Shown here: positions 493-39,892 of the stretch, piece by piece | How positions within the stretch are numbered: the first letter of the stretch is position 1 | How the letters are laid out: the number at the start of each line of letters is the position of its first letter | Origin: a virus | Taxonomy: Duplodnaviria > Caudoviricetes | Direction: 5' to 3' (one strand) | Virus record (IMG/VR): IMGVR_UViG_3300037722_000246 | Span: 1 to 39,935 of that record | Length of the DNA stretch: 39,935 bases | Position numbers and translations under genes: made by a program | Notes under the pieces: generated by a model | The model's database searches: none | What the model was told of the DNA's origin: nothing | The model's input: only the letters and a program-made list of their open reading frames with translations

Positions 493-2114
493 TTCTTACC
501 GTTCCCCCTTTCGATGAAAAAACCGCATGGCCTACTTTGGGACCGCAAGTTTGCGACTTCATAGAAAGTTACCTTGTGTTTGGGCCGGGGGATTTGCGCG
601 GGCAGCCTGTCATTTTAGACATAGAAAAACGGGCGCTTATTTACCGGATGTATGAAGTCTATCCGCAGGGACATGAGCAAGCCGGGCGGCGGCGGTTCAA
701 ACGTTGCGCTATTTCTCTGAGAAAGGGCACGGCAAAAACTGAACTTGCCGCCTGGATCGCGGCGGTTGAATTGCACCCATACGGGCCGGTTCGTTGCGAT
801 GGTTGGGATGCAAACGGGCAGCCGGTAGGTATTGGGGTGACTGATCCTTATGTGCCCATGATTGCGTATACCCAAGAGCAATCTGATGAGCTTGCCTATG
901 GCGCGTTGAAGATGATCCTTGAATACAGTCCGTTGGCTGATGATTTTGACATTGGCCTGGAACGTATTATGAGGATCGGCGGAGATGGCAAGGCCGTTAG
1001 TTTGGCGACTGCACCGGATGCACGGGACGGGGCGCGTACCACGTTTCAAGTTTTTGATGAGACTCACCGGCTTAATGCGCCACGTTTGAAGGCAGCGCAT
1101 AGGACAATGTTAGCCAATATTCCAAAGCGTATGTTATCCGATGCGTGGTCAATGGAAATTACGACTGCACCTGCACCAGGTGAAAACTCAGTGGCAGAGG
1201 ATACAATGGACTATGCGCGGCAAGTTCATGATGGCAAAATTCAGGATAGTCGTTTGTTTTTCTTCCATCGGCAGGCAGACGACAAGCACGATTTGACAAC
1301 ACAGGACGGAGTACGGGCGGCCGTAATTGAGGCCAGCGGACCGGCAGCGTCATGGTCAGACATCGACGGCATTGTAGAAATGTGGCGGGATCCGACAAGT
1401 GACAAAACGTATTTAGAGCGCGTTTGGCTTAATCGCCTAGTCCGTGCCTCAGAACGTGCATTCGATATAGAGCAATTCAAGGTCCTGGCAGATGAAGATT
1501 ACCGGCCAATGCCTGGGGCAATGATTACACTCGGCTTTGACGGGGCACGATGGCATGATGCAACGGCAATTGTGGCAACCGAGATTGTTACCGGATTCCA
1601 ATGGTTAGCGGGATTGTGGGAGCGGCCAGAATTGGACCTTGAATATTGGGAAGTTGACGCGGCTGATGTTGATGGTGTCATGGCGGAGCTAATGGATACA
1701 TACAAGGTCTGGCGGGCCTATTGTGACCCGCCATACTGGGAAACATCAGTAGCAGATTGGGCCGGGCGGTATGGCAGTGAACGAGTTTTGGAATGGTGGA
1801 CAAATCGGCCGAAACAAATGGCCTATGCAATCAAACAATTTAATACGGCCGTTACCTCTGGCGATTTGTTACATGATGGCAATCCTCATTATATCCGGCA
1901 CGTCGGTAATGCGGTTCGTAAAGTGTTGCGGATTCGAGATGAAGAAGGGCAGCCGCTATGGACAATTTACAAAGAGCGGCCAGATAGCCCGCATAAAATT
2001 GATGCGGCGATGGCTGGTGTTCTGAGTTGGGAAGCGCGAAACGACGCATTAACGGCCGGCGTTGGCAAGGTGCAACAGTCAGTATATGAGAGCCGGGGCA
2101 TTGTTGTCGCATAG
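489..2114 (+). CDS. terL: terminase large subunit
   Basis: Walker A-like RKGTAKTE, Walker B VFDETH, nuclease motifs LGFDGA and KIDAAMA; 541 aa. Confidence 0.95.
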   Translation: MILTVPPFDEKTAWPTLGPQVCDFIESYLVFGPGDLRGQPVILDIEKRALIYRMYEVYPQGHEQAGRRRFKRCAISLRKGTAKTELAAWIAAVELHPYGPVRCDGWDANGQPVGIGVTDPYVPMIAYTQEQSDELAYGALKMILEYSPLADDFDIGLERIMRIGGDGKAVSLATAPDARDGARTTFQVFDETHRLNAPRLKAAHRTMLANIPKRMLSDAWSMEITTAPAPGENSVAEDTMDYARQVHDGKIQDSRLFFFHRQADDKHDLTTQDGVRAAVIEASGPAASWSDIDGIVEMWRDPTSDKTYLERVWLNRLVRASERAFDIEQFKVLADEDYRPMPGAMITLGFDGARWHDATAIVATEIVTGFQWLAGLWERPELDLEYWEVDAADVDGVMAELMDTYKVWRAYCDPPYWETSVADWAGRYGSERVLEWWTNRPKQMAYAIKQFNTAVTSGDLLHDGNPHYIRHVGNAVRKVLRIRDEEGQPLWTIYKERPDSPHKIDAAMAGVLSWEARNDALTAGVGKVQQSVYESRGIVVA

Positions 2115-2121
2115 TCGTATA

Positions 2122-2150
2122 TTGCAATTAAGATGTTTTTGATTTAATAT
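2122..2150 (+). promoter_or_regulatory. possible sigma70-type promoter upstream of head genes
   Basis: TTGCAA-17 bp-TAATAT in an AT-rich intergenic gap. Confidence 0.35.
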
Positions 2151-2160
2151 GTAAGGCAAA

Positions 2161-2397
2161 ATGGAACTTACCTTGTGGCAAAAGCTATTTAATCCATATC
2201 CGCAACTGAGGCGGGCGATTGTGAACTTGAAAACGGGCACGGTATTTCGGGCTATTGTTTACCGAAGAACCGGGCCGTTTTTGGTTTTGCGGCAAGTCGA
2301 GATGCTATCAGATCGTGACAGTAAAATGGAGCCGCGCGTAACCAATGGTGAGGTACTGATACAAATGACTGATATTGATTTTATACAGGTAATCTAA
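2161..2397 (+). CDS. small hypothetical protein between terL and portal
   Basis: 78-aa ORF coupled to the portal start (TAATG). Confidence 0.6.
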   Translation: MELTLWQKLFNPYPQLRRAIVNLKTGTVFRAIVYRRTGPFLVLRQVEMLSDRDSKMEPRVTNGEVLIQMTDIDFIQVI

Positions 2398-4328
2398 TGG
2401 CAGTCATTGATACCGTTAATGGTTTGCAAATCACGCGGCAAAATTGGACACCGGGAATTATGCGCAGTAGCCTGCGTTTTTACGATGCTCATAATTATGC
2501 CTATGCGGAGCTTTACCGGTTACAGCCAAACGTGCGGACGTGCGTTGACTTCCTGGCGCGAAACATTGCCCAACTTGGTTTGCATTTTTTCCGGCGTGTT
2601 AGTGAAACGGATCGGGAGCGCTTGCGGGATTATCCCCCTGTCAATTTAATCAATCAGCCGTTACCAGCGCAGTACAAAATGACACGGTATCGGCTTATTG
2701 AAAGCCTGATGGCTGACCTGGGCATTTACTTCAATGCTTATTGGCTGAAAATCCGGCGTGATGGTGAATTATCGGCACTGCTACGCATTCCGCCTACGAT
2801 GGTTGAGGTTGAGGGCGGGTTGTTGATGACAAACTATAAAATCACAGTAGGGGGAAGTACAAAAGACTTTGCACCCGACGATGTGATCCATTTCCGGGGC
2901 TACAATCCGGAAAACCCGATAGAGGGCATGTCACCGCTTGAAACATTGCGGCGTATTTTGGCAGAGGAACACAGCGCGGGCACATACCGGGAAAACTTCT
3001 GGCAAAACGCGGCGCGGCAAAGTGGCGTTATCAAACGTCCATTGGCTGCACCTTCTTGGAGCGACACGGCGCGGGAACGGTTCATAGCTGAATTTGAAGA
3101 ACTGTACAGCGGGGAAGAAAACAGCGGCAAGACGGCCGTTTTGGAAGAGGGTATGGAGTGGGTTCCCAACACGTTTAATGCTAAAGACAGTGAATACCTT
3201 GCCGGGCGCAAACTGACACGGGAGGAATGCGCACGGGCTTACCATATTCCCCTTCCGATGGTTGGCATTTTAGATCATGCCACGTTCTCCAATATTTCTG
3301 AACAACACAAAAACTTGTACCAAGATTCATTGGGGCCGTGGCTGGCAATGATCGAGCAAGATATTGATTTGCAGTTATTGCCAGAATGGACAGATTCAAA
3401 TGGCGTATATTGTGAATTTAACATAGCGCAAAAACTACAAGGCGATTTTGAGCAGCAGGTTAAGAGTTTGCAAAGCGCAGTTGGACGGCCGTACATGACA
3501 GCCAATGAAGCGCGGGCCAAACTAAACTTGCCGTCAATGGCTGGAGATGCTGATCAACTGGTAACGCCGTTAAATGTTATCGTTGGCGGGCAGGCATCGC
3601 CGCGTGATAGCGCTCCAAAGATTAGGCAAGCAATACAAGGTCAAAACTCAAAAGCCGCTTCTTTTTCCTCATACAATCCCGACTTGCGTCGAAACCATGT
3701 ACAGAAATGGACTGAGATTTTCACGGCACATTATCGACGGCAGGAAAGCGCGATTGTCAGTCGCGTACCGAAAGGTCGGAAACTTGACATCGGTGGTGTG
3801 TGGTATGATGAGGAACGATGGAACCGGGAACTGGCAGAGGATTTGCTGAAGGCGAACCGCTTAACGGCCGTTGCCTGGGCCGAACTGATAGCAGAACAAA
3901 CGGGCATGGCGGCATCTGAAGATATTATGATGGCCTGGCTGATTGAACATAGCCGGGTGCAATCTGAAAATATCAATTTTGCTATGCGTGTGAAATTGAC
4001 AGAGGCACTAGCCAAACCGGATGCAGATGAGGAAGTACGCGATCTATTTAGGCAGGCGATTACCGTTTGGTCACAGAATGACGCGGAAACAGCCGTTACC
4101 ACTGCTAGTCAATTTGGTGCAAATGAGGCGGCGCGTGCCGGTGGTTTGCGTATGAAAACATGGCAGACGAATAGCGGCAATCCGCGTGCCAGTCATGCTG
4201 CGCAAAATGGAATGACAATACCAATTGGTGATACGTTCCCGAATGGGCAAAAGTGGCCGGGCGCGCCTGCTGTACCTGCTGAGGTTGCGAACTGTCAATG
4301 TAGTGTGTCATTTTCGAGAGGTGAATGA
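2397..4328 (+). CDS. HK97-family portal protein fused to a C-terminal MuF/minor-head-like domain
   Basis: Portal motifs VIHFRGYNP, GMSPLE, ARAYHIP, MTANEARAKLNLP. C-terminal KTW...RASH...WPG...NCQC is the MuF signature. Confidence 0.9.
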   Translation: MAVIDTVNGLQITRQNWTPGIMRSSLRFYDAHNYAYAELYRLQPNVRTCVDFLARNIAQLGLHFFRRVSETDRERLRDYPPVNLINQPLPAQYKMTRYRLIESLMADLGIYFNAYWLKIRRDGELSALLRIPPTMVEVEGGLLMTNYKITVGGSTKDFAPDDVIHFRGYNPENPIEGMSPLETLRRILAEEHSAGTYRENFWQNAARQSGVIKRPLAAPSWSDTARERFIAEFEELYSGEENSGKTAVLEEGMEWVPNTFNAKDSEYLAGRKLTREECARAYHIPLPMVGILDHATFSNISEQHKNLYQDSLGPWLAMIEQDIDLQLLPEWTDSNGVYCEFNIAQKLQGDFEQQVKSLQSAVGRPYMTANEARAKLNLPSMAGDADQLVTPLNVIVGGQASPRDSAPKIRQAIQGQNSKAASFSSYNPDLRRNHVQKWTEIFTAHYRRQESAIVSRVPKGRKLDIGGVWYDEERWNRELAEDLLKANRLTAVAWAELIAEQTGMAASEDIMMAWLIEHSRVQSENINFAMRVKLTEALAKPDADEEVRDLFRQAITVWSQNDAETAVTTASQFGANEAARAGGLRMKTWQTNSGNPRASHAAQNGMTIPIGDTFPNGQKWPGAPAVPAEVANCQCSVSFSRGE

Positions 4329-5449
4329 TGAGCAAAGTCAAATGCGAGTGTCAATATTGTGGCAACGATTTTATGACTTGGACTTCTCGGATAAAGAGGG
4401 GTGCTGGTAAGTATTGTTCGCGTGAATGTACTGATAAAGGCAAGCGTGTAAATGGCACTTATGATAAATTGGCTGAAGAAATGAGGGAAGGCGAGTATCG
4501 TAAATGTGAAGTTTGTGATACAGAGTTTTATGCTGATAGGTATCGTATTGAGTTGGGGCAAGGCCGATTTTGCAGCCAAGCTTGTTCTGCTAACAATCGA
4601 TCTATTGGGAAACCCCGCGAGTTGATGACTATTAAGTGTGCTTGGTGTGAATGTAACTTTGAAACATATAATGCCAATCGCAAGTATTGTCATTATGATT
4701 GTTTTGTGGAATCTAGAAAACATGGGGAATATAGAAAGTGCGAAACTTGTGATGAAGAATTCTATGTTCAGAAAAATCAAATCGAATCTGGAAATGGAAG
4801 ATATTGTAGTCGAGTGTGTTTTTCAGAAGCAATTAAACAAGGTAAATATCCTAATTTGGGAGCTGATCGTGGTGGAGAATATCGGAATTGTTTAATTTGT
4901 TCAGCAGAGTTTTATTTATCACCAAGTAGAATTGAAAGTGGATATGGTTATTATTGTAGTCGAGAATGTGCTCATGCCGGGCAACGCAGGGGAGATATTT
5001 TTGAGTGTCTTGTTTGTGGAAATGAGTTTTATTTACCGCCTAGTAAAATTGCTGAGGAAAGGAAATATTGTAGCCGTAGTTGTTATATGAAGGATGAAAA
5101 CAAAAAGCGATGGGAAAGCGGTACGTATGATGGTGTCTTCCAATCTCCGACATCAATTGAAATTGCCACAGCAGAAGCCTTAACAGGATTTGAGCTAATC
5201 TATAAGCAAGAATATCGCCCAGATGATTATAGCAGGCCGTTTGATTTTCTTGTTGGAGAAAACTTACTTATAGAAGTGCAAGGTGATTATTGGCATAATC
5301 GGCCAGGCGCAAGAGAGCGCGATGCGGAAAAAGCACAGTGGGCACAGGAAAATGGGTATCAATTAGTAGAGTTTTGGGAATATGAAATTCATGATATGGG
5401 TGCAACCGAATTGATTAGAGAAAGAGTTATTCCTCTGGTAGGAGATTGA
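4325..5449 (+). CDS. Cys-rich Zn-finger-repeat protein with C-terminal DUF559/Vsr-like endonuclease (homing-endonuclease-like)
   Basis: Six CxxC...F...YCSxxC-type repeats; C-terminal PFDF...IEVQGDYWH PD-(D/E)xK-type motif; visibly AT-richer DNA. Confidence 0.75.
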   Translation: MMSKVKCECQYCGNDFMTWTSRIKRGAGKYCSRECTDKGKRVNGTYDKLAEEMREGEYRKCEVCDTEFYADRYRIELGQGRFCSQACSANNRSIGKPRELMTIKCAWCECNFETYNANRKYCHYDCFVESRKHGEYRKCETCDEEFYVQKNQIESGNGRYCSRVCFSEAIKQGKYPNLGADRGGEYRNCLICSAEFYLSPSRIESGYGYYCSRECAHAGQRRGDIFECLVCGNEFYLPPSKIAEERKYCSRSCYMKDENKKRWESGTYDGVFQSPTSIEIATAEALTGFELIYKQEYRPDDYSRPFDFLVGENLLIEVQGDYWHNRPGARERDAEKAQWAQENGYQLVEFWEYEIHDMGATELIRERVIPLVGD

Positions 5450-5450
5450 T

Positions 5451-6053
5451 ATGAAAACAAAGATATTTTCGGCTCCATTAGAAGTTAAGGCAGACGAAGG
5501 TAATGCACATACTTTTGAAGCTATATTTGCCCGTTTTAATGTTATCGATCATGATGGAGATGTTGTATTGCCTACTGCCATTGAAGATGGAGCTAAAGTT
5601 CGTATTTCTTATTGGGGGCACAGATGGCAAGACCTTCCTATTGGACGAGGGGTTATAACCGTTGATGAGGAAAAGGCTAAAGTATCAGGAGTTTTTTTTG
5701 ATACCGAGGGTGGACGGGAAACATATGAGACACTGAAGGGTCTTAATGATTTGGCTGAATTCTCATATGGTTTTGATGTGCTTGAGGCAGAGCGAGGAAC
5801 GTTTAGAAATGAGGATGTGCAGTTTCTCAAAAAGTTAAAGTTATTTGAGGTAAGCCCGGTCATGCTTGGGGCAACACCTGATACTGCTTTATTAGCAATA
5901 AAAAGCATGAAAAATGATGATATTGGCGATGGTGATGAAGGCGAGATCGAAGATGATAAGCCGAGCGAACCGGATGCTAATCTGATGACTGAAATAACAA
6001 TAGTAGAAATCGGAGTGATAGCACTCGGAGGATTATCAAATGAAAAAGAGTGA
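5451..6053 (+). CDS. HK97-family prohead protease
   Basis: DHDGDVV, H..LPIG, FSYGF, LFEVSPV..GA motifs; directly upstream of the capsid gene. Confidence 0.9.
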   Translation: MKTKIFSAPLEVKADEGNAHTFEAIFARFNVIDHDGDVVLPTAIEDGAKVRISYWGHRWQDLPIGRGVITVDEEKAKVSGVFFDTEGGRETYETLKGLNDLAEFSYGFDVLEAERGTFRNEDVQFLKKLKLFEVSPVMLGATPDTALLAIKSMKNDDIGDGDEGEIEDDKPSEPDANLMTEITIVEIGVIALGGLSNEKE

Positions 6054-7350
6054 AAAGCTCATTGCAGAAATGCAAGGTAAATGGAAAGAAATTGAAGGCA
6101 TCCGTGATGCCGTTGTCAAGGATGAACGCGAATTTACGGCCGATGAAAAGGCGCGTGTTGAAGCGACTCTTGACGAAGTGCGCGGTATCGAAGTCCAGGT
6201 GAAGAAAGAGAAAGAGAATGAGGCGTTGGTTGACCAAATCAATGGCTTTAACGATTTGTTTGCTCCCCCGGCCGGTGGCCAGAAAAATGATCAACCTGAC
6301 AATGGTGATCGTCGAGAACGCAAACAACAGGCGATGGCCTTGGGTGAACAGTTTGTCAAGTCTGATGTTTGGCAAAACTGGATGAAACAATTCAACGGCC
6401 GGATTCCTGATAGTGCGCGTGGCCTTTCTTCTCCGCCTGTGGAAATCAAAAACCTGATGCGCAAAACGCTATTGACTGGAACCAGTGACACAAGCGCCGG
6501 GGCATTTGTCCAAACGGACTATACCGGCATCTATGAACCGCTTGGCCGGTACATGTTGTCATTGCGCAATCTGGTAAGCGTTCGCAATACAACGAGTGAC
6601 ACGGTGGAGTTTGTACGCCAGGTAACGCAAGTTACTCAGGCGGCAACTGTGCCAGAATCGAACGTGACTGATTATACCGGCGCGACTGGTGAAGTCAGTG
6701 GCGAAAAACCCGAAGCGGCCATGACGTTCCTGAAGGTTCAGGAAACCGTCAAAACCATTGCTGTCTGGATTCCTGCAACCAAACGCGCCCTGTCTGATGT
6801 TGCTCAATTGCGCGGCTTGATTGATGACGAGTTACGCGCCGATCTGAATGAGGAACTGGAAAACCAGATGCTCAACGGCGACGGCGCGGGCGAAAACTTC
6901 ACTGGCTTGAACAATGTGTCTGGTGTCCTGGCTCAGGCGTTTACGACCGACCTTGCAACGACAGCACGTAAGGCCATTACCAATTTGCTTATTAATGGCA
7001 AGCAAATGCCGACGGCATGGCTGTTGAATCCGCAGGACTGGGAAGCTTTCGACCTGATGACTGATACCAACGGACGCTACTACTGGGGCGGCCCGATGGC
7101 AATGGGGCCGCGTACCCTTTGGGGCGTTCCTGTTGCTCAAAGTTTCTTCCAGACGCAAGGCACGGGTTGGCTTGGTAACTGGACTAAAGCCGTTTTATGG
7201 GATCGTGAACAAGCAAATATCTCGGTAAGCGATTCTCATAGTGACTTCTTTATCCGCAATATGGTTGCAATCCTTGCTGAGTTGCGGGCGGCCTTCGGGA
7301 TTATACGTCCATCAGCATTTTGTGAAGTAGACCTTGAATCTGGTAGCTAA
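6040..7350 (+). CDS. major capsid protein (HK97 fold, N-terminal coiled-coil delta domain)
   Basis: KTIAVWIPATKRALSD, MLNGDG, LWGVPV, FIRNMVAILAELR; RBS GGAGG. Confidence 0.95.
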   Translation: MKKSEKLIAEMQGKWKEIEGIRDAVVKDEREFTADEKARVEATLDEVRGIEVQVKKEKENEALVDQINGFNDLFAPPAGGQKNDQPDNGDRRERKQQAMALGEQFVKSDVWQNWMKQFNGRIPDSARGLSSPPVEIKNLMRKTLLTGTSDTSAGAFVQTDYTGIYEPLGRYMLSLRNLVSVRNTTSDTVEFVRQVTQVTQAATVPESNVTDYTGATGEVSGEKPEAAMTFLKVQETVKTIAVWIPATKRALSDVAQLRGLIDDELRADLNEELENQMLNGDGAGENFTGLNNVSGVLAQAFTTDLATTARKAITNLLINGKQMPTAWLLNPQDWEAFDLMTDTNGRYYWGGPMAMGPRTLWGVPVAQSFFQTQGTGWLGNWTKAVLWDREQANISVSDSHSDFFIRNMVAILAELRAAFGIIRPSAFCEVDLESGS

Positions 7351-7353
7351 TCG

Positions 7354-8862
7354 ATGAATGTAAATGTGCTGGTCAGGAACCTAAACGAAGATCGAGTGAT
7401 TCCGCGTTTTGCCGGGTATCTTCGGGATGGTCTTGGCTGGCACATTTCAAATAAGCCGGTCAAGGGAATGGATGCATATTACCTCAGTCTGTACCTTGAA
7501 TGGAGTTTTATGCAACCACTCCCCGACCGGCCTGTCATGGCTTACTTTTCACACCGAGAAGAAAACCCGGTAAATGGGCCAAAGTCCCGACTATTTGACA
7601 ACGTGGCGAGCTTGGTAGATCTGCGCATAGTTACAGCGGGGATGTATCGTGATATGTTGGCTGATTGCGGGCCTACCGTGCAGATACCTGCACCGGTTGA
7701 ACGAGAACGGTTCACAATTCCTGGAAAACTTTCTGGTAGAAAGGCTCTTACAGCCGGTTTCTCTGGTTATGTCTACGGAAATAAACGAAAAGGGGAAGAT
7801 TTAGCCAGCCGATTGGTGAATTATTATCCTGCTGTTTCCTGGCGAGCGAGTGGGCGCGGCTGGCCTGCATTGACGCGGCGATTTACGTGGGCAGAGATGC
7901 CAGCGTTTTATCAGTCGCTGGATGTCCTGGTAATTACGGCACGTGTCGAAGGCGTCCCGATGCCAGCATTAGAGGCGTTGGCTTGTGGCGTATCGGTAGT
8001 CATCCCGCGCGGTGTTGGACTATTGGATGAACTGCCAGACATGCAAGGCATACACCGATATGATCGCGGCAATGCGCAGGATTTAATACGCGCCTTCGGA
8101 GAGGCAATACATACAAGGTCATGCACCAGCCGTGAAACATTGCGGGCAGTGACGCAACCATACACAATTGAGGCATGGATACAAGGTCATAAATCCGCAA
8201 TCGAACGAATTAATGAGGAACCTATGGAAAAAATAATCACTGGTCGGGATGATAAAATTATGAAAACCATCCGGCAGTCATGGCCCGAGGTTGACACCGT
8301 TTTGAAATGGACGACCAAATACATCCCCAAAATCAAGCGACAAGTAGCTGAATATCAAGGCGCGATCCTGGCGTACTATGCACACACGTATAACAAACCT
8401 GGGGCGCGGTTTCTTGAAATTGGCACGGCGCTTGGTTACTCGGCTTGTGTCATGGCAACGGCTGCACCGATGGCCAGAATCACGACCTTGAATCCTAAGG
8501 ACGGCGAATATCAGAAAGCCGTCAAAAATTTGTCAGTTCGTTCTAACGTCCGAGTTGTAAAGCAAACATCGGAAGAATTTTGGCATAGTGACAACGGTCA
8601 ATACGATATGATTTTTGTGGACGGCGATCATCGGTATGCGATGGTGCTACATGATGCACAGTTTTTCAACCGATTGAAACCAGGCGGCCTGATTATCTTT
8701 CATGACTATTCGCCTGATGGTAGTGACCGGCCAAGTGATGGCAGCTACAAGGCGCTTAATGATTTGGCAGAAAAGCATAGGCCATTTGACGTGAAGGTGA
8801 TCGGAACTGGTAACGTTGGCATGGTTGGTTGGATTCGCCAGTCGGGGGAAGAGTGGGCATGA
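7354..8862 (+). CDS. GT-B (GT4-like) glycosyltransferase fused to a class I SAM methyltransferase
   Basis: EGVPMPALEALACG (E-x7-E of GT4); LEIGTALGYS and IFVDGDH...GGLIIFHDY (Methyltransf_24-like). Confidence 0.85.
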   Translation: MNVNVLVRNLNEDRVIPRFAGYLRDGLGWHISNKPVKGMDAYYLSLYLEWSFMQPLPDRPVMAYFSHREENPVNGPKSRLFDNVASLVDLRIVTAGMYRDMLADCGPTVQIPAPVERERFTIPGKLSGRKALTAGFSGYVYGNKRKGEDLASRLVNYYPAVSWRASGRGWPALTRRFTWAEMPAFYQSLDVLVITARVEGVPMPALEALACGVSVVIPRGVGLLDELPDMQGIHRYDRGNAQDLIRAFGEAIHTRSCTSRETLRAVTQPYTIEAWIQGHKSAIERINEEPMEKIITGRDDKIMKTIRQSWPEVDTVLKWTTKYIPKIKRQVAEYQGAILAYYAHTYNKPGARFLEIGTALGYSACVMATAAPMARITTLNPKDGEYQKAVKNLSVRSNVRVVKQTSEEFWHSDNGQYDMIFVDGDHRYAMVLHDAQFFNRLKPGGLIIFHDYSPDGSDRPSDGSYKALNDLAEKHRPFDVKVIGTGNVGMVGWIRQSGEEWA

Positions 8863-9599
8863 ACCGAGGGATTTACTGCGTAGCATTTGGCGATCCGGCG
8901 CGGGCGTGTGCCGTTGACATGATGAAAAGTGTCAAACAGTTTTTGCCGGATATTCCAATTGCGTTGGCAGCCGATAAACCGATTGGCATTGAAGATATTT
9001 TCATCAGCCAACCGGACAAGGACATTGGCGGCCGGTCGGTAAAACTCATGGCCTATGATTTGACGCCGCCTGAGTGGGGCGCGGTGCTATATTTGGATGC
9101 TGACACGGAAGTGACTTCTCCCGATGTGCAATTTTATTTTGATTTGATTAGTGACGGTTGGGAGTTTGTTATCTGCAAAGACCCGATGCGGGAGGACGTG
9201 GCGCAATTGCCGCGTCACAAATATGATGCGGCGGAATTGGTGGAGATTGAGTCTGTTTTAGGGACCTTGCATACGCTCATGTTAAATGGTGGCGTGTGGG
9301 CATTTGCGAGGAACGAAAACGTCAAAGCGTTTTTCGATTCCTGGCAGGTTGAATGGGCAAAGTACGGGCGGCGCGATCAGGGCGCTTTGCTGCGGGCCTT
9401 GTATACTCATCCGCTTAGGATGTACGTGCTAGGCAATGAGTGGAATTATTTCCCGGCGTACAGTTCAAAGATTACTGAACCGGCTGGCCTGATGCATTAT
9501 CCAGGCAAGGCGCGGCGGTGGGGCGGACAGATACCGGGACGGCTGGACAGTCCGATAGCATGGCAGAAGGTAAAACAACACCAGGGCGGGAAGCGATAA
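8859..9599 (+). CDS. GT-A (GT8-like) glycosyltransferase
   Basis: YLDAD (DxD), NGGV, DQGAL, WN motifs; ATG at 8859 overlaps the upstream stop. Confidence 0.8.
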   Translation: MNRGIYCVAFGDPARACAVDMMKSVKQFLPDIPIALAADKPIGIEDIFISQPDKDIGGRSVKLMAYDLTPPEWGAVLYLDADTEVTSPDVQFYFDLISDGWEFVICKDPMREDVAQLPRHKYDAAELVEIESVLGTLHTLMLNGGVWAFARNENVKAFFDSWQVEWAKYGRRDQGALLRALYTHPLRMYVLGNEWNYFPAYSSKITEPAGLMHYPGKARRWGGQIPGRLDSPIAWQKVKQHQGGKR

Positions 9600-10051
9600 T
9601 GGATGTGCTGAACATTGGCTGTGGCAATCGAATGATTGAAGGTGCTGTACATCATGACCGGGTGAAGCACCGTCCTGAGATTGATGTGGTTCACGATTTG
9701 AACGTATTGCCTTGGCCATTCGATGGCAAGTCATTTGATAGAATCGTGGCCTTGTCTGTGTTGGAGCATTTAGACATTGATCTTGTTGCCAGCCTGAATG
9801 AATGTCACCGGATTCTAAGACCGGGCGGGCAGGTGGTAATCAAGTTGCCGTTGTGGAATGCAGAGCGATCATATGATGATCCGACTCATCGCTGGGTTTA
9901 CTCCCTGCGGGCGCTTGACCAGCTTTGTCCTGACACAGAACGGGGTAAGGAATACTCATTCTACACGCCGTACAAATGGAAGTTTGTGGAGCAGCCGCAT
10001 CCGAATGAAGAAAAAACATCACTCTGGGCTACATTGGAGGCACTGCCATGA
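9599..10051 (+). CDS. class I SAM-dependent methyltransferase
   Basis: LNIGCG, VLEHL, RILRPGG, DPTH motifs; TAATG coupling. Confidence 0.85.
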   Translation: MDVLNIGCGNRMIEGAVHHDRVKHRPEIDVVHDLNVLPWPFDGKSFDRIVALSVLEHLDIDLVASLNECHRILRPGGQVVIKLPLWNAERSYDDPTHRWVYSLRALDQLCPDTERGKEYSFYTPYKWKFVEQPHPNEEKTSLWATLEALP

Positions 10052-10659
10052 CGTGGGGCATTTTGCTATTGGGGCGTGATGACATAATCAAAAGTCGGGC
10101 GAAACGGTATAAAGTGGCCTTGAATGTGGGCGATGCTCCTACCCTGCCATTTGACAGAACACTCATCACCAAGCCGGGAACGGCCGTTCCGTGGGAGTTG
10201 TTACCGGCAGCTTGGGAATTATTGGATAAATGGGATGCGGCTGTACCCTTTTGGGAGTATACCGAAACGGCCGTAAACGTTGGCAGTCATGAGGATCGGA
10301 AACGGACACAGGACGTTGTACGCGATTTGCGAGTTTTGTTACATGCGACTGAGTTGGTTTTTGTGAAAAAGAATCAAATGGGTATTGACCTTGTATCGTG
10401 CTGGCAAGATGAAATGATACAGGGTGGAGATGAACGGCTTGCATTTCTGAGAGCAACATACAAGGTCAAACCGCGTTTGTGCATCCTGCCAACCTCATGG
10501 CTAAATGCGCGGCGCGTGGTAGTGACTGCATTGCCACGTCAACCGCGGAATGCAGACAAGCCGCTGATTCGTGTTGAAATTCAGCCGGGCCGTTTTGTGA
10601 AATGTCACGAAGGTGATGAAAAAATGGTATTGGCTATGATGGATAGAGGACGGAGGTAG
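10048..10659 (+). CDS. hypothetical protein, possibly a degenerate GT-A-like fold
   Basis: 'W..EM..GGDERLAFLRATY' parallels 'W..EW..RDQGALLRALY' in the GT8-like gene; no clear DxD. Confidence 0.55.
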   Translation: MTWGILLLGRDDIIKSRAKRYKVALNVGDAPTLPFDRTLITKPGTAVPWELLPAAWELLDKWDAAVPFWEYTETAVNVGSHEDRKRTQDVVRDLRVLLHATELVFVKKNQMGIDLVSCWQDEMIQGGDERLAFLRATYKVKPRLCILPTSWLNARRVVVTALPRQPRNADKPLIRVEIQPGRFVKCHEGDEKMVLAMMDRGRR

Positions 10660-10661
10660 AT

Positions 10662-11655: not shown

Positions 11656-11671
11656 GGCAATGAGTGGGAAA

Positions 11672-11701: not shown

Positions 11702-11703
11702 AT

Positions 11704-29021: not shown

Positions 29022-29041
29022 GGAACCTATGAAAATCAAAA

Positions 29042-29230: not shown

Positions 29231-29330
29231 CAGACTAGCCTGAACAATAAAATAAGCTATTATTAGACAAAACGTCTTGACCGTCTGTTATTCGCAATCC
29301 CAGGCACGTCAAGGCGTTTTTGCTTTGAGG
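29208..29330 (+). promoter_or_regulatory. extended -10 promoter plus structured leader (attenuator/antisense-like)
   Basis: TGgTAAAAT; 29223-29235 is complementary to 29283-29295; stem 29269-29281/29308-29320 ends in a T-run. Confidence 0.55.
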
Positions 29331-29335
29331 TAAAA

Positions 29336-29707: not shown

Positions 29708-29766
29708 CATAATGCACGCAGATTTAAGCGTCTTTAATATGGTACTGGATAGACAGGACATTTTTC

Positions 29767-30243: not shown

Positions 30244-30291
30244 GGTTCATTTGGCGTATTCTATGGTATAATTGTATCAAGTTGATACAAT
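30238..30291 (+). promoter_or_regulatory. promoter TTTTAAGGTTC-N18-TATAAT with palindromic operator ATTGTATCAAGTTGATACAAT
   Basis: Second copy of the 22279 promoter/operator; TATAAT 30267-30272, palindrome 30271-30291. Confidence 0.75.
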
Positions 30292-30328
30292 AAATGAGAC
30301 AGCCGGATAGACGGTAAAGGTAAATAAA

Positions 30329-30595
30329 ATGGAATACAACAGAAAAAACCCGCAGTATATTGTTACTAAAGAATATGATGGCGGGTGCAGGGGCGGCCAT
30401 CATTGCTTGTGCGGCAGACAGATACGATATATCTTCGAGGTTGAACGCTCTAACAATCTTGGGGCTAGCGACAAATTTCCTGCGCAGCTTGGGAGCGAAT
30501 GCTCTGGAAATTTGTTATCGGAACGGGTGCAAAAGCTACTCGCCACCCACTTTGAAAAATACCCAGAAACGGTTTTTAGTCCTCTCCCGTTCTAA
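30329..30595 (+). CDS. hypothetical protein
   Basis: First ORF behind the promoter; CLCG...GSEC. Confidence 0.6.
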   Translation: MEYNRKNPQYIVTKEYDGGCRGGHHCLCGRQIRYIFEVERSNNLGASDKFPAQLGSECSGNLLSERVQKLLATHFEKYPETVFSPLPF

Positions 30596-30635
30596 CCCCC
30601 CGCCGGTGGCATCGTAACCGGCAAAAGGAAACCAA

Positions 30636-30974
30636 ATGACAACCATCACTTTTAGACAGCAAGACGAAAAGTATTCAGTTTATCCGGCAACCGTTCGGGA
30701 TCGCCTTAACGTTTTTATGTACGGTATTATGAATCTCAAAATGAAAAATTTGGCGCGTGACATGGTAACGAAAGACGATGCCGTTGAACGTTGCCATGAT
30801 TGGCTCAGTCACGAGATGCGGCGCTTGTGGAAAGCATCGTATGAGCGGGATGCTAACTCGGAAATTTACGAGCGCATGGGCCAGGAAATGTTGGGGGAGA
30901 TTGCGGACCTTGTATATGGTGCTGATGCGTTCGATAAATTGTTTGGCATTGTGAAATTGGAAGAGGCGGTTTAG
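30636..30974 (+). CDS. hypothetical protein
   Basis: RBS AAGGA preceded by a small hairpin. Confidence 0.6.
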   Translation: MTTITFRQQDEKYSVYPATVRDRLNVFMYGIMNLKMKNLARDMVTKDDAVERCHDWLSHEMRRLWKASYERDANSEIYERMGQEMLGEIADLVYGADAFDKLFGIVKLEEAV

Positions 30975-31166
30975 CTTCTAATATTGGCCGTTCCCGGCAG
31001 CGGGAGCGGCAGCCACAGTTGAGCGGGGAACTGGTGCCGGATGAGAGGCCGGTTATTGAGCAGTTGAATGAGATTGTGGCTGCCTTGCGGGTGATAACGG
31101 GACGGCCGCTATCAGCGCGTGAGCAGTTTTTAATTGAGCAGATTCATAGTTTGACGGAGGTTTGAA

Positions 31167-31361
31167 ATGATGAATTGTCCTGTTTGCGAAAGCGAGAATG
31201 TAATGGAAATCAGTAACTTGCACGTGATTTGGAAGTGCTTCGATTGCGGACACGAGGGTGATGGAGAAGTCTTTGATGCTCGCGAGACCGATCCGTTCTG
31301 CGTGCCAGGAATTCAATCTGGTGACTTCGACGTTTCAGGATACGAAGCACAATTTGCTTAA
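31167..31361 (+). CDS. small Zn-ribbon protein
   Basis: RBS GGAGG; CPVC...CFDC. Confidence 0.6.
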   Translation: MMNCPVCESENVMEISNLHVIWKCFDCGHEGDGEVFDARETDPFCVPGIQSGDFDVSGYEAQFA

Positions 31362-31391
31362 CGGCCGTTAACGGCAAAGGGAAAAGACCTG

Positions 31392-31679
31392 ATGGCTGAC
31401 TTTGAAGAATTCTTGCGCCAAATAGCTGACATAGCCTCTTTCGAGGGTGACAGCATGGGAGTGGTAATCCGCGAACCAAAGCCGCATCCGGCCCAAACAC
31501 CCGCCCTGACCTGTGATGTTTGCGATTATGTAGACGATACGGCCGCGAAAACGGCCGTTTCCGAAGACGAAGATGGTGTGATCCGCTGCCAGGTTTGCCG
31601 AAAGAAAAAGCAGCAGGGAACAAGCGGATACGTACATATCCCCCGGCGACGCCGGGGCAAAGGAGACAAGACCCCATGA
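31392..31679 (+). CDS. hypothetical Zn-binding protein
   Basis: CDVC...CQVC. Confidence 0.5.
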   Translation: MADFEEFLRQIADIASFEGDSMGVVIREPKPHPAQTPALTCDVCDYVDDTAAKTAVSEDEDGVIRCQVCRKKKQQGTSGYVHIPRRRRGKGDKTP

Positions 31680-32101
31680 GTGACATTTATTTCCCCAATC
31701 CCAAACGCGGCTGTGGCACGAAAGTGCCCGGCGGCTTCTATGCCGAAACCGAGATGAGCCGGGGCGGCGTGCTGAACCTGTGGACGTGGCTCCTGGGCGA
31801 CGGACTGGAAGGCGGGATCAACTGCCTGCTGAACATTCCCCCGCGCCGGGCCATTTATGGCAATCTGGCCGCATCCCTGGTGATAGGCGAGTTTGTGGGC
31901 GCTGACGTGCCGATGGAAGGCATCGGTATCTTTGACGCCTTGCATGAGATGTTTGACGGGCTGCGCGGCCGTACGGCTGACATCGCCCTCTTTGACCACG
32001 TAGGCAGCCAGTATTACACGCCCTGGTCATTTGCCCAAGAGGTAATGGCCTACGGTCCCAGCCGCCGCATTCCCCCGGCATTGGCCAGGGTGAGACTATG
32101 A
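31676..32101 (+). CDS. hypothetical protein
   Basis: RBS AAGGAG, ATG 31676; KRGCG motif; visibly GC-richer DNA. Confidence 0.55.
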   Translation: MSDIYFPNPKRGCGTKVPGGFYAETEMSRGGVLNLWTWLLGDGLEGGINCLLNIPPRRAIYGNLAASLVIGEFVGADVPMEGIGIFDALHEMFDGLRGRTADIALFDHVGSQYYTPWSFAQEVMAYGPSRRIPPALARVRL

Positions 32102-32322
32102 CATTACTCGAAAAATTGTACCGAATAATCGCACGTGACAATTGCGGCATGACGATCACAGAAGGCCACGATCCGCGCTTTGGCACAATCACATATCACG
32201 ATGTGCAAGGCACGGATACATACAAGGTCGAATATTTTGACGGCAGTCCGCAGCGCATCAGCCGGGAAATTGGCGGCCGCTGGCGGCATTTGACAAACGG
32301 GGATGCGGTTGCACCCTGGTGA
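32098..32322 (+). CDS. hypothetical protein
   Basis: ATGA overlap. Confidence 0.5.
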   Translation: MTLLEKLYRIIARDNCGMTITEGHDPRFGTITYHDVQGTDTYKVEYFDGSPQRISREIGGRWRHLTNGDAVAPW

Positions 32323-32326
32323 AACT

Positions 32327-32545
32327 ATGATCACAAATACTACTCAATTCCATCATGCCGTACGTGGTGCTGGTTATGTCCAGGTACTGCGCACAAAAGG
32401 CAGCAGGCCACTTTTGCAAATAATGGCAACGGGCCAAACGTTTGAGATGTCGTTTGCTTTGTATCGTGACCTTGTATCCGCTGGCAACATCATAGAGGTG
32501 CGGCAAAGCAAAACGGCCATAGCCTGTGATGTGGTTTGTACTTAG
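32327..32545 (+). CDS. hypothetical protein
   Basis: ATG 4 nt after the upstream stop. Confidence 0.5.
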   Translation: MITNTTQFHHAVRGAGYVQVLRTKGSRPLLQIMATGQTFEMSFALYRDLVSAGNIIEVRQSKTAIACDVVCT

Positions 32546-32555
32546 GGGTGATTAA

Positions 32556-32849
32556 ATGTTATATGCTATGTTTGGCATTTTGCTATTTGTATTCTTGTTG
32601 GTTGCTATTGGTATAGCCAAAAACAACAAAGAGCAACAACGTCAAGACGATTATCGAAAAAATAATGGTGCCTATCGTAATGGCGTTTGGGAACACAATA
32701 ATTTCTTAAACCAGGAACGCAATCAAGCTCGCTTTCAAGAACAGCGCGAAAGGCAAAAAGAAATCACCAGGGAGAATAAAAGACGGCAGGAAAAAGAAGA
32801 GGATACCCGGTGGGGACGCAAAAACGGCAGATGGTTTTGGGATGAATAA
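32556..32849 (+). CDS. membrane-anchored hypothetical protein
   Basis: N-terminal hydrophobic helix followed by a charged coil. Confidence 0.55.
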   Translation: MLYAMFGILLFVFLLVAIGIAKNNKEQQRQDDYRKNNGAYRNGVWEHNNFLNQERNQARFQEQRERQKEITRENKRRQEKEEDTRWGRKNGRWFWDE

Positions 32850-33014
32850 CGGCCGTAGCGTGTGACGTTGTTTGTGCCTGATTTTCATACCCCCCTACTG
32901 AGGACCTTGTATCTTGTGTGTGGTGGTTTGAACCAGGCACACCACTACCGGACACCACTAGGGCTACATATTTTATGGATATGTACGCCTATTTTACTGT
33001 CTAACTCCATGGTG

Positions 33015-33043
33015 TTGAAACAGGTGGGGGAGTTTGGTATAAT
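33015..33043 (+). promoter_or_regulatory. strong sigma70-type promoter
   Basis: TTGAAA-17 bp-TATAAT with extended TG. Confidence 0.8.
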
Positions 33044-33049
33044 GTGCCT

Positions 33050-33211
33050 TGTAGCGGTGTGGCAACCGCGTCAGGCAGTAGAAAATAAAATATTTCTAAA
33101 GCGAAAGACCGCTTTAGTCTCTGGCTTACCTGTAAGCCGTAAGTCCTGACGAATTGCCACATTCATATCTGGCGATTGGTAGGCTAGAGACTAAAGCGGT
33201 TTTTATTATTT
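33050..33211 (+). ncRNA. structured leader RNA upstream of the helicase (C4/CI antisense-like or attenuator)
   Basis: 23-bp stem 33108-33130/33178-33200 with two G-U pairs and a U-tract. Loop CCTGACG-aa-TTGCCACA is complementary to upstream TGTGGCAA-ccg-CGTCAGG. Confidence 0.6.
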
Positions 33212-33229
33212 ACAACGTATAGGTGAAAT

Positions 33230-34591
33230 ATGCCAAGCGCAAAACTGCGAAACTTGTACATCAATGCAGCGCCGGATCACTCAGGCCATGCAGAATGTTT
33301 GATAGCAACTCATCCAAACAAATTCAAATATACTGATACGCATGGATGGTTTGTTTACAACGGGAAGTTTTGGGATAACGAATCGGGGAAGGTAAAAGTT
33401 ATCCAGTCGATAAGAGAAGTTTTGCGGGAGCGCCAGAAAATAGCCGGCCAAAGGAACGATAAAAAACTAGAGAACAAGTCATGTGCCGATCAATGGACAA
33501 TAAACGGCGTGTTGGGTGTCTTGCAGACGTGGCCTGATATTTATGCCACTATTGATGACTTCGATGATTATCATCACCTGTTGAATTGTGACAATGGAGT
33601 GCTTGACCTTGAATCTATGCGTTTGTCCAGTCACTCGCCAATGGATTCATTTACCTACTGTCTTCCTATTAAATATGATCCCGATGCCGACCAAACCGAA
33701 TGGACTTACTTCCTAAGAAATTGCGGACTTTCAAATGAGATACTCGACTTCCTTCAGGAGTTTTTTGGCTACTGCTTGACTGGTGCAACCTCTGAGGAAA
33801 TATTGTTATATTTCCGGGGCAAGTCCAGATCGGGAAAGGGTGTTATCACTGAAACGTTTTTAGAACTTATGGGGCCATTGGGCCAGGGCGTCAACTTTAG
33901 AATGTTCACAACCGACAGGGGGGCCGATACTCAAAACTTTGACATGGCTCCGCTTAAGGGGAAACGGTTCATTGTTGCCGGTGAACAAAACCGCAAAGAC
34001 GGATTGAACGAAGCGACAGTTAAAATGATAACGGGTGGGGATTCTATCTACTGCGCATTCAAGCACAAAAACCATTTTTCGTACAGACCACAATACAAGG
34101 TCGTATTGACTTCTAATCACATGGCTTGGGCCGATCCTGCGGATGAGGCCGTTTGGGGACGGCTGCGCATTGTGCCATTTGAAAAGTCGTTTTTGGGCAA
34201 AGAGGACAAGACACTTAAGGCCAGACTAAAGGAACCTGAAAACATTCAAGGCGTTCTGGCCTGGGCAGTGGCTGGCGCGTATCGTTGGTATACAAATGGC
34301 ATGTCCTATCCAAAAATAATGAAAGATGAATTGGACAAAAGCCGCTCCTCTGCCAGCACGGTAATCGCATTTGTTGAGGATGAATGCAAGTTTGATCCGG
34401 CTGGTATGGTCGAGGTGACAACCTTGTATGATAATTACAAGACGTACTGCGCAGCCGAAGGCTACGGATCGTTGGGGCGGCCGCGTTTCAAGGAAGAAAT
34501 AGCAACTATTTACAAAATATCTGAGGAAAGAAAACGTCTCATCCCCAACGGAAAATTGAAACGCGTTTTCACTGGAATTTTGAAAGTGTGA
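33230..34591 (+). CDS. P4/D5-family helicase (D5_N + SF3 ATPase), no primase domain
   Basis: LNCDNGVLDL, Walker A GKSRSGKG, KMITGGD, LTSNH, AVWGRL. Confidence 0.9.
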   Translation: MPSAKLRNLYINAAPDHSGHAECLIATHPNKFKYTDTHGWFVYNGKFWDNESGKVKVIQSIREVLRERQKIAGQRNDKKLENKSCADQWTINGVLGVLQTWPDIYATIDDFDDYHHLLNCDNGVLDLESMRLSSHSPMDSFTYCLPIKYDPDADQTEWTYFLRNCGLSNEILDFLQEFFGYCLTGATSEEILLYFRGKSRSGKGVITETFLELMGPLGQGVNFRMFTTDRGADTQNFDMAPLKGKRFIVAGEQNRKDGLNEATVKMITGGDSIYCAFKHKNHFSYRPQYKVVLTSNHMAWADPADEAVWGRLRIVPFEKSFLGKEDKTLKARLKEPENIQGVLAWAVAGAYRWYTNGMSYPKIMKDELDKSRSSASTVIAFVEDECKFDPAGMVEVTTLYDNYKTYCAAEGYGSLGRPRFKEEIATIYKISEERKRLIPNGKLKRVFTGILKV

Positions 34592-35900: not shown

Positions 35901-36042
35901 GAAGTTGATGGACCTTGTATGTGTGCTTTTAACTTTTGAATACCCGGCGTGTCTTGCCCCCACAATACAAGGTCCAAAACTCTTATCAGTTATGTGTCAT
36001 CAAACAAAAGGAGAACTTTGGAGATGACATGTTTTTTGTAAA

Positions 36043-38269: not shown

Positions 38270-39457
38270 ATGTCTACTGGTTTTTTGGGTTTCCACATGC
38301 AAGGCGCAGTCCAAAATTGGCCAAATGCGATTAAACTTTTACCGGCCGGCACATGGTGTAAGTCGTTAAACGATCAACACCTATGTCGAGACTTAAAAGC
38401 TGTCAATCCTGGTATCAAAACAGTTTTTCGATATGAGTTCAACCGACATCAAAACCTAGTTGGCAATTACAAAGATTTGGCGCGGGATTTCTTCAGCCGG
38501 TTCATTGACGGCACGTTCTGGGAACAAAAATTATACCTATACATTGACGCCATAGAAGAGTGGAATGAATATCTTGCCAATAGCCAATCATCAGTTGAGC
38601 GTATGAATTGGCTTAATTGGTGCAAGGCTGTGAACGATGTTTGGTCAATGGAATATCGCACAAAGCCAGAATTGAAACATATCCGACTGGTTAGTTGTAA
38701 TACGGCGATTGGTAATGACATCCCGCCGGCGTTTGCTGAGGTAGTGGCAGCGCATGATGGCATACTCGGATACCACAATTACACCAACGTCTATGATAAG
38801 CAAGTCAGGCCGGAAGATTGGCAATATTACTCAGGCCGATGGGTAACAATGGACACCACATACAAGGTCAACGGCACTCAGGTTGAATGGCTATTTACCG
38901 AAGGCGGGCCGACGATCATGGGCACATTCGACGGCCAGCATTATGGTGGCGTTACTGAAGGCTGGCGACATAATAAGTGCTATAATGGCGACATTGATGC
39001 CTATGTCAATGGCACAATTCAGTATCAATTGGATAGGATCGCGGCATGGAATAAAACCAACAATAACCGATGCCTGGGCGGTGTCCTCTTCACCTCGGAA
39101 AATACTAAAGATAGCATCTGGAAAAACTTCCATTTGTTTGAATCCGAGATGGTGAAAGTTGCGCAAAAGGCAGCTTCGTATGTTCCTGTTACGCCTTCTG
39201 CTGAACCGCCTCCGGGTGATTGGCAACAGGCTGCATGGAACAAGTCGATCGAGATGCAAATTAGTAACGGCATTATGCTAAATGCTAAGGCAGCTATACA
39301 AGGTCAAATACTCTCTGATGGCTTCATCCCAGTCCAAAATGAGTTTCAGCACGAAGGGCGAACGTATCAGGCGGCCGAAACGCTTGACAATAGTAAGTCC
39401 CGACGACTATACTGGTGGACAGTTAGTGATGGTGTTAATTGGTTTCCCAAGCCATAG
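38270..39457 (+). CDS. glycoside-hydrolase-like TIM-barrel protein, candidate endolysin
   Basis: Clan GH-A-like WNE, GYHNY, FTEGG; Pro-rich linker before a small C-terminal domain; RBS AGGAG. Confidence 0.6.
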   Translation: MSTGFLGFHMQGAVQNWPNAIKLLPAGTWCKSLNDQHLCRDLKAVNPGIKTVFRYEFNRHQNLVGNYKDLARDFFSRFIDGTFWEQKLYLYIDAIEEWNEYLANSQSSVERMNWLNWCKAVNDVWSMEYRTKPELKHIRLVSCNTAIGNDIPPAFAEVVAAHDGILGYHNYTNVYDKQVRPEDWQYYSGRWVTMDTTYKVNGTQVEWLFTEGGPTIMGTFDGQHYGGVTEGWRHNKCYNGDIDAYVNGTIQYQLDRIAAWNKTNNNRCLGGVLFTSENTKDSIWKNFHLFESEMVKVAQKAASYVPVTPSAEPPPGDWQQAAWNKSIEMQISNGIMLNAKAAIQGQILSDGFIPVQNEFQHEGRTYQAAETLDNSKSRRLYWWTVSDGVNWFPKP

Positions 39458-39483
39458 AATCCATTTTGTTTTCCTGATGAGAC

Positions 39484-39519
39484 AAGAGGCCCCGGTTGTG
39501 TACCGGGGTCTTTTGTTTT
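39484..39519 (+). terminator. intrinsic terminator after the lysin candidate
   Basis: AGAGGCCCCGGT-tgtgt-ACCGGGGTCTTT followed by TGTTTT. Confidence 0.75.
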
Positions 39520-39532
39520 AAAATGTATCCAT

Positions 39533-39892
39533 ATGAGAGCAGCGAGAGTTTGTGCCCGACGTGGGTGTATCAATTTAGTAAACGGCAATGGTAGCATGTG
39601 CCTAGAGCATACAAGGTCAGCACGTCGCCAACGTGATGCCACTAATACCCGTCCCTCTACTGCCCAGCGTTATGGCCCGAAGTGGCGATTCATCCGAGCG
39701 CAGTACATCAAAAGATACCCATCATGTGCAGTATGTGGCAAGCTAGCAAAGCAAGTCGATCACATCATTCCTTATGAAGTTTGCAAGTCTCATGCTTGGG
39801 ATAACTTGCAATCGCTGTGTCACTCTTGCCATAGTCGAAAGACGGCAAAATATGATGGTGGATTTGGAAATGCCAGGGTGCAGCATGGCTAG
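39533..39892 (+). CDS. HNH endonuclease (HK97 gp74-like, packaging-associated)
   Basis: CAVC...VDHIIP...NLQSLCHSCHSRKT; immediately upstream of terS if the genome is circular. Confidence 0.9.
   Translation: MRAARVCARRGCINLVNGNGSMCLEHTRSARRQRDATNTRPSTAQRYGPKWRFIRAQYIKRYPSCAVCGKLAKQVDHIIPYEVCKSHAWDNLQSLCHSCHSRKTAKYDGGFGNARVQHG

Follow-up and report, generated by a model that had tools for sequence, protein, structure and literature searches.

The genome IMGVR_UViG_3300037722_000246 of a tailed virus (Caudoviricetes), 39,935 nucleotides (nt) long and analysed here over its full length (the window), carries the 10-mer ATACAAGGTC at 36 positions on both strands. We consider it probable that these copies are single-strand template sites at which an enzyme encoded by the phage itself at 27394-28257, a primase-polymerase (Prim-Pol) fused to a zinc-binding domain, initiates primer synthesis on either strand. 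The word is specific to phages and conserved, its flank is strand-polar, and its spelling varies by clade of the enzyme; it is tied to one replication cassette and is under constraint. That the enzyme sets the specificity and primes at the word is predicted from sequence comparison, a structure model and analogy, and is held with fair assurance rather than as a certainty.

According to the proposed mechanism, a helicase or a recombination intermediate would expose single strands, and the DnaG-type zinc domain, probably together with the catalytic domain, would read 8–10 nt of the word, which stays uncopied. The AEP domain would then use the 5′ flank as template for a primer of about 8 nt, which could explain why only those approximately eight bases are compositionally biased. 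Extension is ascribed to a host polymerase; no separate DNA polymerase was found among the 63 open reading frames (ORFs) scanned in the window; an integrase was not found among them either. As such a long site does not arise by chance, selection would have to write it, about every 1–3 kb per strand and coding sequence included. Lastly, a site or a back-to-back pair of sites kept within the primase gene would be the likely origin, travelling with the gene.

Recurrence of the word in the window

All 36 copies (25 on the plus and 11 on the minus strand, 1700..39618) were recovered by exact search of the 39.9-kb window, and a preliminary description of this DNA proved exact in every coordinate it gave for these copies and for five variants. 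Each copy, a predicted template recognition site, has a T-poor 5′ flank of 6–8 nt. The variant ATTCAAGGTC is located at 1475 on the plus strand and at 1635, 7330, 8484 and 33605 on the minus strand (span 1475..33614); altogether, 14 one-mismatch words compare with the 36 exact ones. The window represents a whole or near-whole siphophage genome of 39.9 kb with every gene on the plus strand. Across it the density of ATACAAGGTC is uneven, at 0.47 per kb in 1-21500 and 1.41 per kb in 21501-39935.

Thirty of the 36 copies fall within the ORF set of this analysis, where all six readings occur (YKV 8, IQG 9, TRS 5, DLV 5, TLY 2, PCI 1). As the sites at 23943 and 23971 precede the likely true start (24001) of their ORF, 28 is the safer count of intragenic copies. 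With all readings present and 28–30 copies inside genes, the earlier claim of a frame-independent word that is not a protein motif is borne out. Markov models of orders 0–3 predict 0.05–0.08 copies. Synonymous resampling, in which every protein was kept, resulted in a mean of 0.53 copies and a maximum of 4 in 1000 compared to the 30 observed in ORFs, and codon-order shuffling in a mean of 0.05 and a maximum of 2. The enrichment thus persists under the codon-preserving shuffle that had been suggested as a check. An assembly artefact, which would have undone the signal, is excluded by contigs of run X1, which may be the source of the window and match 20000-39935 with no changed letter in long pieces, and by two independent relatives (L184 and L186, 85% at the nucleotide level), in which 4 of 4 aligned ATACAAGGTC sites, as well as the variant sites at 1475 and 1635, are intact. 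Beneath 14 exact sites, 18 of 56 amino acids agree with the relatives' consensus, compared to 0.43–0.80 gene-wide, in a hand count where forced changes and variable columns look alike. Read mapping also indicated strain-level relatives in three or four other studies, with too few differences listed to score sites.

The flank of the word is polar. When 16 relatives were pooled, the share of C at about −8 to −2 of the word was 0.32–0.55 compared to a background of about 0.22–0.27, which was regained by about −10. The C-rich 5′ flank does not depend on the class of copy, whether sense (n = 207), antisense (n = 152) or intergenic (n = 40), and the 3′ side is flat except for the palindromic ATACT(G/C)AGTAT spellings, which have a mirror G-rich flank. 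In the window itself, T is scarce among the first six bases 5′ of each copy (14 of 216, with 55.2 expected; none of 10,000 draws was as low), again in sense, antisense and intergenic classes. This pattern is indirect evidence for an asymmetric site with a primer template about one primer long immediately 5′ of it, independent of the coding strand. Individual bases are conserved in the core (0.07–0.14 mismatches per base) and not in the flank (0.22–0.33); a biased and unconserved flank is as expected for a compositional preference. Aligned sites were intact in 77 of 122 cases, whereas 27.9 were expected from same-frame neighbours (17 pairs).

A primase gene and an associated family of words

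The Prim-Pol gene (27394-28257, plus strand) encodes the predicted reader of the word, a protein with an AEP domain with intact DxD (residues 84–86) and H115, a flexible linker (amino acids 181–202, the low-confidence region of the structure model) and a CHC2/DnaG-type zinc-binding domain (PF09250 and PF01807). DxD and RGxH are kept in all 59 aligned proteins. The model matches the primase of pRN1 ORF904 (E 9e-9) and also the NrS-1 fold, and its zinc domain matches DnaG (1d0q, rmsd 1.8). Four exact sites lie inside the gene, at 27568 and 27947 on the minus strand and at 27708 and 27988 on the plus strand. This reflects a wider trend: over 32 records, the primase gene is three-fold enriched in sites (71 versus 23.5 expected), with at least one site in 31 of 32 genes, and a site in the phage's own spelling falls within codons 175–203, the linker, in 27 of 39 primase genes despite the differing spellings.

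Among 160 loci fetched by capsid or terminase likeness, ATACAAGGTC was present only in L184, L186 and L001, and once in L024; L001 (74% at the nucleotide level) retains 0 of 5 orthologous sites and has one copy elsewhere. A 16-base pattern of the window type returned 63 loci, none of them word-rich and hence no further close relative, and the pair pattern returned seven chance-level loci in viral contigs with no further copies. The cultured-phage collection contained no relative. Relatives of the primase were fetched with a protein alignment; a single-protein scan returned nothing. ATACAAGGTC is one of several related words, among them ATACAAGG, CAACAAGG, ATACAGGG, ATACTGAG, ATACCGAG and CTACTGAG, that saturate phages with the primase–zinc fusion, and individual primase loci have spellings of their own: ATACAAGGCC in L321 (primase 64% identical), TACAAGGCC in the phage contig of genome G446, GCAACAAGGG in L243, and ATACAGGG/ATACCGGG, ATACAGAG, ATACCGAG and CTACTGAG at further loci. 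The spelling ATACTGAG was found at 31 non-redundant loci with 12–44 copies per whole record.

The association was addressed in both directions. Among 88 non-redundant proteins, 59 could be labelled (45 with a word and 14, in records of at least 10 kb, without), and 29 short loci without a call were dropped; thus, a family word, by a pattern defined after the data were seen, is present at 45 of 59 labelled loci encoding the fusion protein. Spellings cluster on the primase tree with 14 changes, compared to a minimum of 22 and a mean of 25.8 in 300 shuffles. Conversely, a search with the DNA pattern alone, which avoids the ascertainment of loci found by protein, gave 134 loci, 12 of them word-rich (11 records). 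For 50 of the 134 loci a protein search was attempted, and in the 44 records it covered the full protein was encoded by 7 of 11 word-rich records and by 0 of 33 others. All six word-rich records that are at least 60% complete encode it, and the four without it are only 20–57% complete. None of 28 head-gene relatives has the fused protein, and word counts made in 12 head-gene relatives were not clearly above control. An arginine preceding the conserved tryptophan of the zinc-domain hairpin is associated with T at position 5 of the word (33 of 33 cases) and with other bases (4 of 12), a lead that is confounded by kinship. Divergent primase clades have weaker words, TC(A/G)AGGC at 37 versus 9.3 in G579, 16 versus 2.8 in L385 and about two-fold in G575-G577, and TTGCCGTC is the word of the divergent-primase records L253 and L349.

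A minus copy followed by a plus copy within 80 bp occurs five times in the window, where 0.49 is expected (4 independent, p 0.002), and the opposite order does not occur. All five pairs fold into long hairpins. One lies where the primase gene codes for the linker (27947..27997) and appears origin-like. Two identical 38-bp elements, each a minus site, 18 nt and a plus site, come after stop codons and finish in T-runs: the first, terminator-like, after the last late gene (22201..22238) and the second after ORF 23086-23922 (23943..23980). The remaining two are found inside ORF 10048-10659 (10387..10467, gap 61) and between genes (35911..35974, gap 44). By analogy with the stem-loop origin of pRN1 and with RSF1010 (as described in PMC4234260), a pair with primers 5′ of each word would start two crossing strands, as an origin needs, and terminator use may be secondary. 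An excess of pairs is seen also in L243 and is absent from the ATACTGAG clade, so that pairing is not a rule of the family.

The primase gene is flanked by a co-inherited cassette (23086..27324, plus strand) comprising genes for an SSB-like protein (23086), an ERCC4 nuclease (24134), an annealing-like protein (24867), a J-domain protein (25435) and a vWA protein (26668); the SSB-like and annealing-like labels are inferred. A D5/P4-type SF3 helicase (33230..34591, plus strand) is the likely partner of the primase. The helicase type changes under the same word, relatives having D5, VirE/VapE-like or RepA-like ATPases, and architectures that join an AEP to a zinc domain, with helicases that can be exchanged, are broadly known (PMC5862659). 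The vWA and J-domain genes are missing from G578 and G579; G583, apparently without several of the cassette genes, was left uncounted as its contig ends there. J-domain and vWA genes stand beside the primase in 57 and 70 primase loci, and the cassette is also conserved in G564-G584, G246 and G230. A chaperone-recruiting step in the replication of these phages is a possibility.

Weighing of alternative explanations

Several observations weigh against priming at the word. The bias toward the sense strand is mild, both in the window (25:11, p 0.03) and in relatives (207 sense versus 152 antisense intragenic copies, p 0.004), and no replichore-like strand switch was found; both strands are interspersed in complete genomes. 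Sites are spaced only slightly more evenly than at random (combined p 0.018). Per-strand gaps have means of 0.9–3.3 kb and maxima of 2.9–11.8 kb, the 11.8-kb gap being on the minus strand of the window. Okazaki priming has a spacing of the order of 1–2 kb, and sites serving it would switch strands at origin and terminus. As there is no such switch, the sites are not explained by simple lagging-strand priming out of a single origin, and bidirectional forks, e.g. recombination-started, must be assumed. The favoured flank bases vary by clade (C-rich, T-poor or G/A-rich). Furthermore, 14 of the 59 loci, each of at least 10 kb, encode the protein, its catalytic motifs intact, but lack a strong word. 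Among the high-GC clades (G573-G577), G573 is devoid of a word and G575-G577 show at most two-fold enrichment. The J-domain gene is site-enriched as well (29 versus 16.8, p 0.004), and the 32 genes of the site-enrichment count and the 17 pairs of the conservation count are related, not independent.

To this must be added that the primase is not alone in its company. The ERCC4, SSB-like and annealing-like genes accompany it in every near-complete word-bearing record checked, and the vWA, J-domain and ERCC4 trees account for the spellings no worse than that of the primase (7 versus 8, 6 versus 6 and 4 versus 5 changes). The trees therefore do not single out the primase among the cassette genes, and one of the other proteins (ERCC4 nuclease, annealing-like or SSB-like) could read the word as a phage-private, Chi-like site for loading, cutting or recombination, for which the use of both strands without a switch would be suitable. 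What singles out the primase is the enrichment of sites in its own gene together with the fixed site in the linker. Seven other gene families are not above chance, including ERCC4 (19 versus 14.5), annealing-like (13 versus 12.7) and SSB-like (12 versus 10.6), and the one-sided 8-nt flank has the geometry of a primer. These three families are not generally known to be sequence-specific. We consider another cassette protein unlikely as the reader. A specificity set by the primase would agree with the two-way association, the clustering on its tree and the sites in its own gene, but the trees of neighbouring genes fit equally.

Binding by a phage repressor to stoperator-like sites that block transcription genome-wide would account for an asymmetric word in 20–60 copies per genome, with phage-specific spellings acting as immunity types; many relatives are temperate, as judged from an integrase, and two of the pairs form terminator-like hairpins. 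Stoperators occupy short gaps between genes and are oriented along transcription (PMC9283540). Here, most copies in the window lie inside genes, and the intragenic copies of relatives are antisense in 152 of 359 cases. A cognate repressor is also not apparent: no HTH or RHH family is common to the word-bearing records in a comparison of 21 records, although remote homologues could escape such a comparison. The window shows no integrase, and a separate palindrome stands at two gene heads. We regard a stoperator role as distinctly unlikely. The palindrome, 15 bp with a central G, is identical at 22315-22329 and 30274-30288, before the ORFs at 22348 (RHH-like) and 30329; the first copy adjoins an extended −10-like TGATATAAT at 22305. 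It is likely the true operator of early genes.

A further alternative dispenses with any benefit of the word, which a replication- or repair-linked drive of a phage enzyme would write or restore, a process that has been proposed for uptake sequences and for iterated palindromes. The turnover of sites seen in L001 and the lower density in the head–tail half agree with it, and conservation cannot separate selection from restoration. The biased, position-variable flank and the site held in place in the primase linker whatever the spelling fit a function better, and we know of no mechanism by which such a drive would write the word. It is accordingly judged very unlikely.

Host signals (uptake sequences, Chi or sites of a nucleoid protein) had been among the options of the preliminary description, and the word does resemble uptake sequences as a non-palindromic 10-mer on both strands, inside genes and in inverted pairs in terminators, a pair preference that is not general among relatives. 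Searches of host genomes did not support such a signal. Across 301 Chloroflexota no genome has more than 14 copies of ATACAAGGTC, and across 160 genomes of a family rich in the palindrome ACGGCCGT none has more than 13, in both sets at or below the reversed-word control, compared to about 900 per Mb in the phage; the thousands of chromosomal copies typical of uptake sequences were not seen in any genome searched. Five unpublished genomes (G042, G149, G231, G276, G551) enter the host tallies as null rows only and are never the sole basis of a claim. When all GTDB contigs were searched for back-to-back pairs, 73 scattered matches and no pair-rich genome were obtained. The word also ends at the host border in two prophages and is confined to the phage part of host contigs: in G246, 56 of 59 TACTGAG in the 140 kb read lie within a 39-kb prophage (229.4–268.4 kb); in G230, 23 of 44 genome-wide copies lie within about 29 kb surrounding the primase gene; and in G446, the phage contig has 22 TACAAGGC in 17 kb, and 11 ATACAAGG compared to none in 40 kb of two host contigs. 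A local occurrence of the same 10-mer in the arms of three palindromic repeats of about 55 bp on a Saccharibacteria contig (L110/L111, G003:C20 5584-7237) looks unrelated.

The window does carry a signal of host type, ACGGCCGT itself, with 18 copies (e.g. 3132-3139 and 31361-31368) compared to 1.8 under synonymous resampling. This is a highly iterated palindrome; ATACAAGGTC, which is non-palindromic and absent from the hosts searched, is not. Genome G254 is saturated with the window's palindrome (956 AAACGGCCGTTT), the single such genome among 401 Chloroflexota, and has no copy of ATACAAGGTC; the host contigs of G446 are saturated with ACGGCCGT as well. The family of G254, possibly Promineifilaceae/Ardenticatenia, is on account of this palindrome taken as the likely host group, with support from a close primase relative on the phage contig of G446, a member of the same family. 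Four ACGGCCGT-rich head-gene relatives (L169, L192, L204, L223) have no copy of ATACAAGGTC. A signal belonging to some host lineage that the collections lack is largely refuted and highly improbable.

Marking of self DNA by a phage modification system that targets the word, as suggested by the PAPS-reductase-like gene (28254-29021) adjoining the primase gene or by the gene at 35211-35831, is hardly credible, as homologues of both are lacking from the 20 other records in the comparison, nearest spellings included.

In summary, the interpretation offered in the preliminary description is retained in one part, a DNA-level protein site that shapes the proteome, and abandoned in others, namely the host signals and the proposed binders; the RHH (22348), HhH (10662) and HTH (36043) proteins are not common to word-bearing phages, and the primase-polymerase, to which the evidence points, had not been among the candidates it named. 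That the word is none of the motifs it had named is upheld by the failed tests for uptake sequences and stoperators and by the failure of the Chi/KOPS/matS-type host option.

Other genes of the window stand apart from the word. The products of 28254-29021 and 35211-35831 (phrog_15826 family, possibly TGT-like), not shared with word-bearing relatives, suggest possible DNA modification. Genes for a glycosyltransferase and a methyltransferase between the capsid and head–tail genes (7354-10659), common to dozens of head-gene relatives, make virion glycosylation possible. A zinc-repeat nuclease-like gene between portal and protease (4325-5449), with low GC content and no ATACAAGGTC, is not in L186 and is likely a recent mobile insert. 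A small EAD7-domain protein (21628-21963), for which no relative was found, ends the late region.

Comparison with known systems

Known primase sites are either triplets, which need no enrichment, or single long origin sites. A long site written genome-wide that reshapes proteins and changes its spelling with the enzyme would, if true, represent a new means of private replication. We put forward, tentatively and with some doubt, a broader notion of a private replication code in these Chloroflexota phages: a primase with a swappable zinc reader would use no priming site other than the long word it recognizes, the genome would be rewritten to bear this word on both strands at intervals of about a kilobase, and lineages would diverge in spelling so that host DNA, co-infecting relatives and parasites are not replicated, the enzyme–word pairs forming a natural code of single-stranded DNA recognition. 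Our literature search, with supplements and most subscription papers outside its scope, found no description of these words, of ATACTGAG with a primase, of such phages or of primase sites that saturate a genome. For further primases of phages and mobile elements, PMC12205980 and PMC11724360 give short or no stated sites. Possible spin-offs are sequence-selective enzymes for primer-free amplification and the use of the word as a marker of prophage borders in Chloroflexota genomes.

Among systems outside replication, the stoperators of cluster A mycobacteriophages are likewise tens of asymmetric, phage-specific sites with lineage variants, but they are intergenic, oriented with transcription and bound by a repressor (PMC9283540). 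The uptake-sequence dialects of Neisseriaceae, 10-mers on both strands and within genes, track the tree of the binding protein; they are a feature of host genomes with thousands of copies, whereas ATACAAGGTC is confined to phage DNA (PMC3630211).

Among primases, the DnaG and T7 types share the zinc-domain fold (1d0q) and repeated priming at dispersed sites but recognize trinucleotides and employ TOPRIM, as opposed to 8–10 nt, AEP and both strands here (PMC6163395). DnaG's zinc-binding domain is said to mediate template recognition, and the same source describes the role of its zinc motif in sequence recognition as unresolved; dozens of natural zinc-domain variants, each paired with a readable word, would make this question testable. 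RSF1010, with ssiA/ssiB and RepB′, provides a replicon-private AEP primase, adjacent sites on opposite strands and extension by host enzymes, though with two long hairpin sites at one origin and no genome-wide words (PMC4234260). The enzyme of pRN1, ORF904, has the closest solved fold for the catalytic domain and makes an 8-nt primer started immediately 5′ of an uncopied GTG motif (PMC2034472), a geometry that matches the flank described here. Its motif of 3 nt needs no enrichment, recognition involves a helix bundle instead of a DnaG-type zinc domain, and there is one stem-loop origin compared to dozens of long sites (PMC4234260).

The primase-polymerase of phage NrS-1 is the closest precedent. 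It starts its primer 5′ of the 8-nt site TTTGGTTA (PMC8718748) and, as here, is a phage AEP enzyme with an asymmetric template site of 8 nt, a D5-type helicase partner and a site by the primase gene; it differs in its fused helicase and helix-bundle domain, and no family of spellings is described. The most enriched 8-mer of the NrS-1 genome (L463) is ATAGACAA (15 versus 2.0). TTTGGTTA itself has one copy in the 37-kb genome, about 150 bp after the primase gene, which again weighs against our interpretation: saturation is not general for such sites, and the precedent is an origin site. This single copy weakens the analogy, and it is also what makes the present case new.

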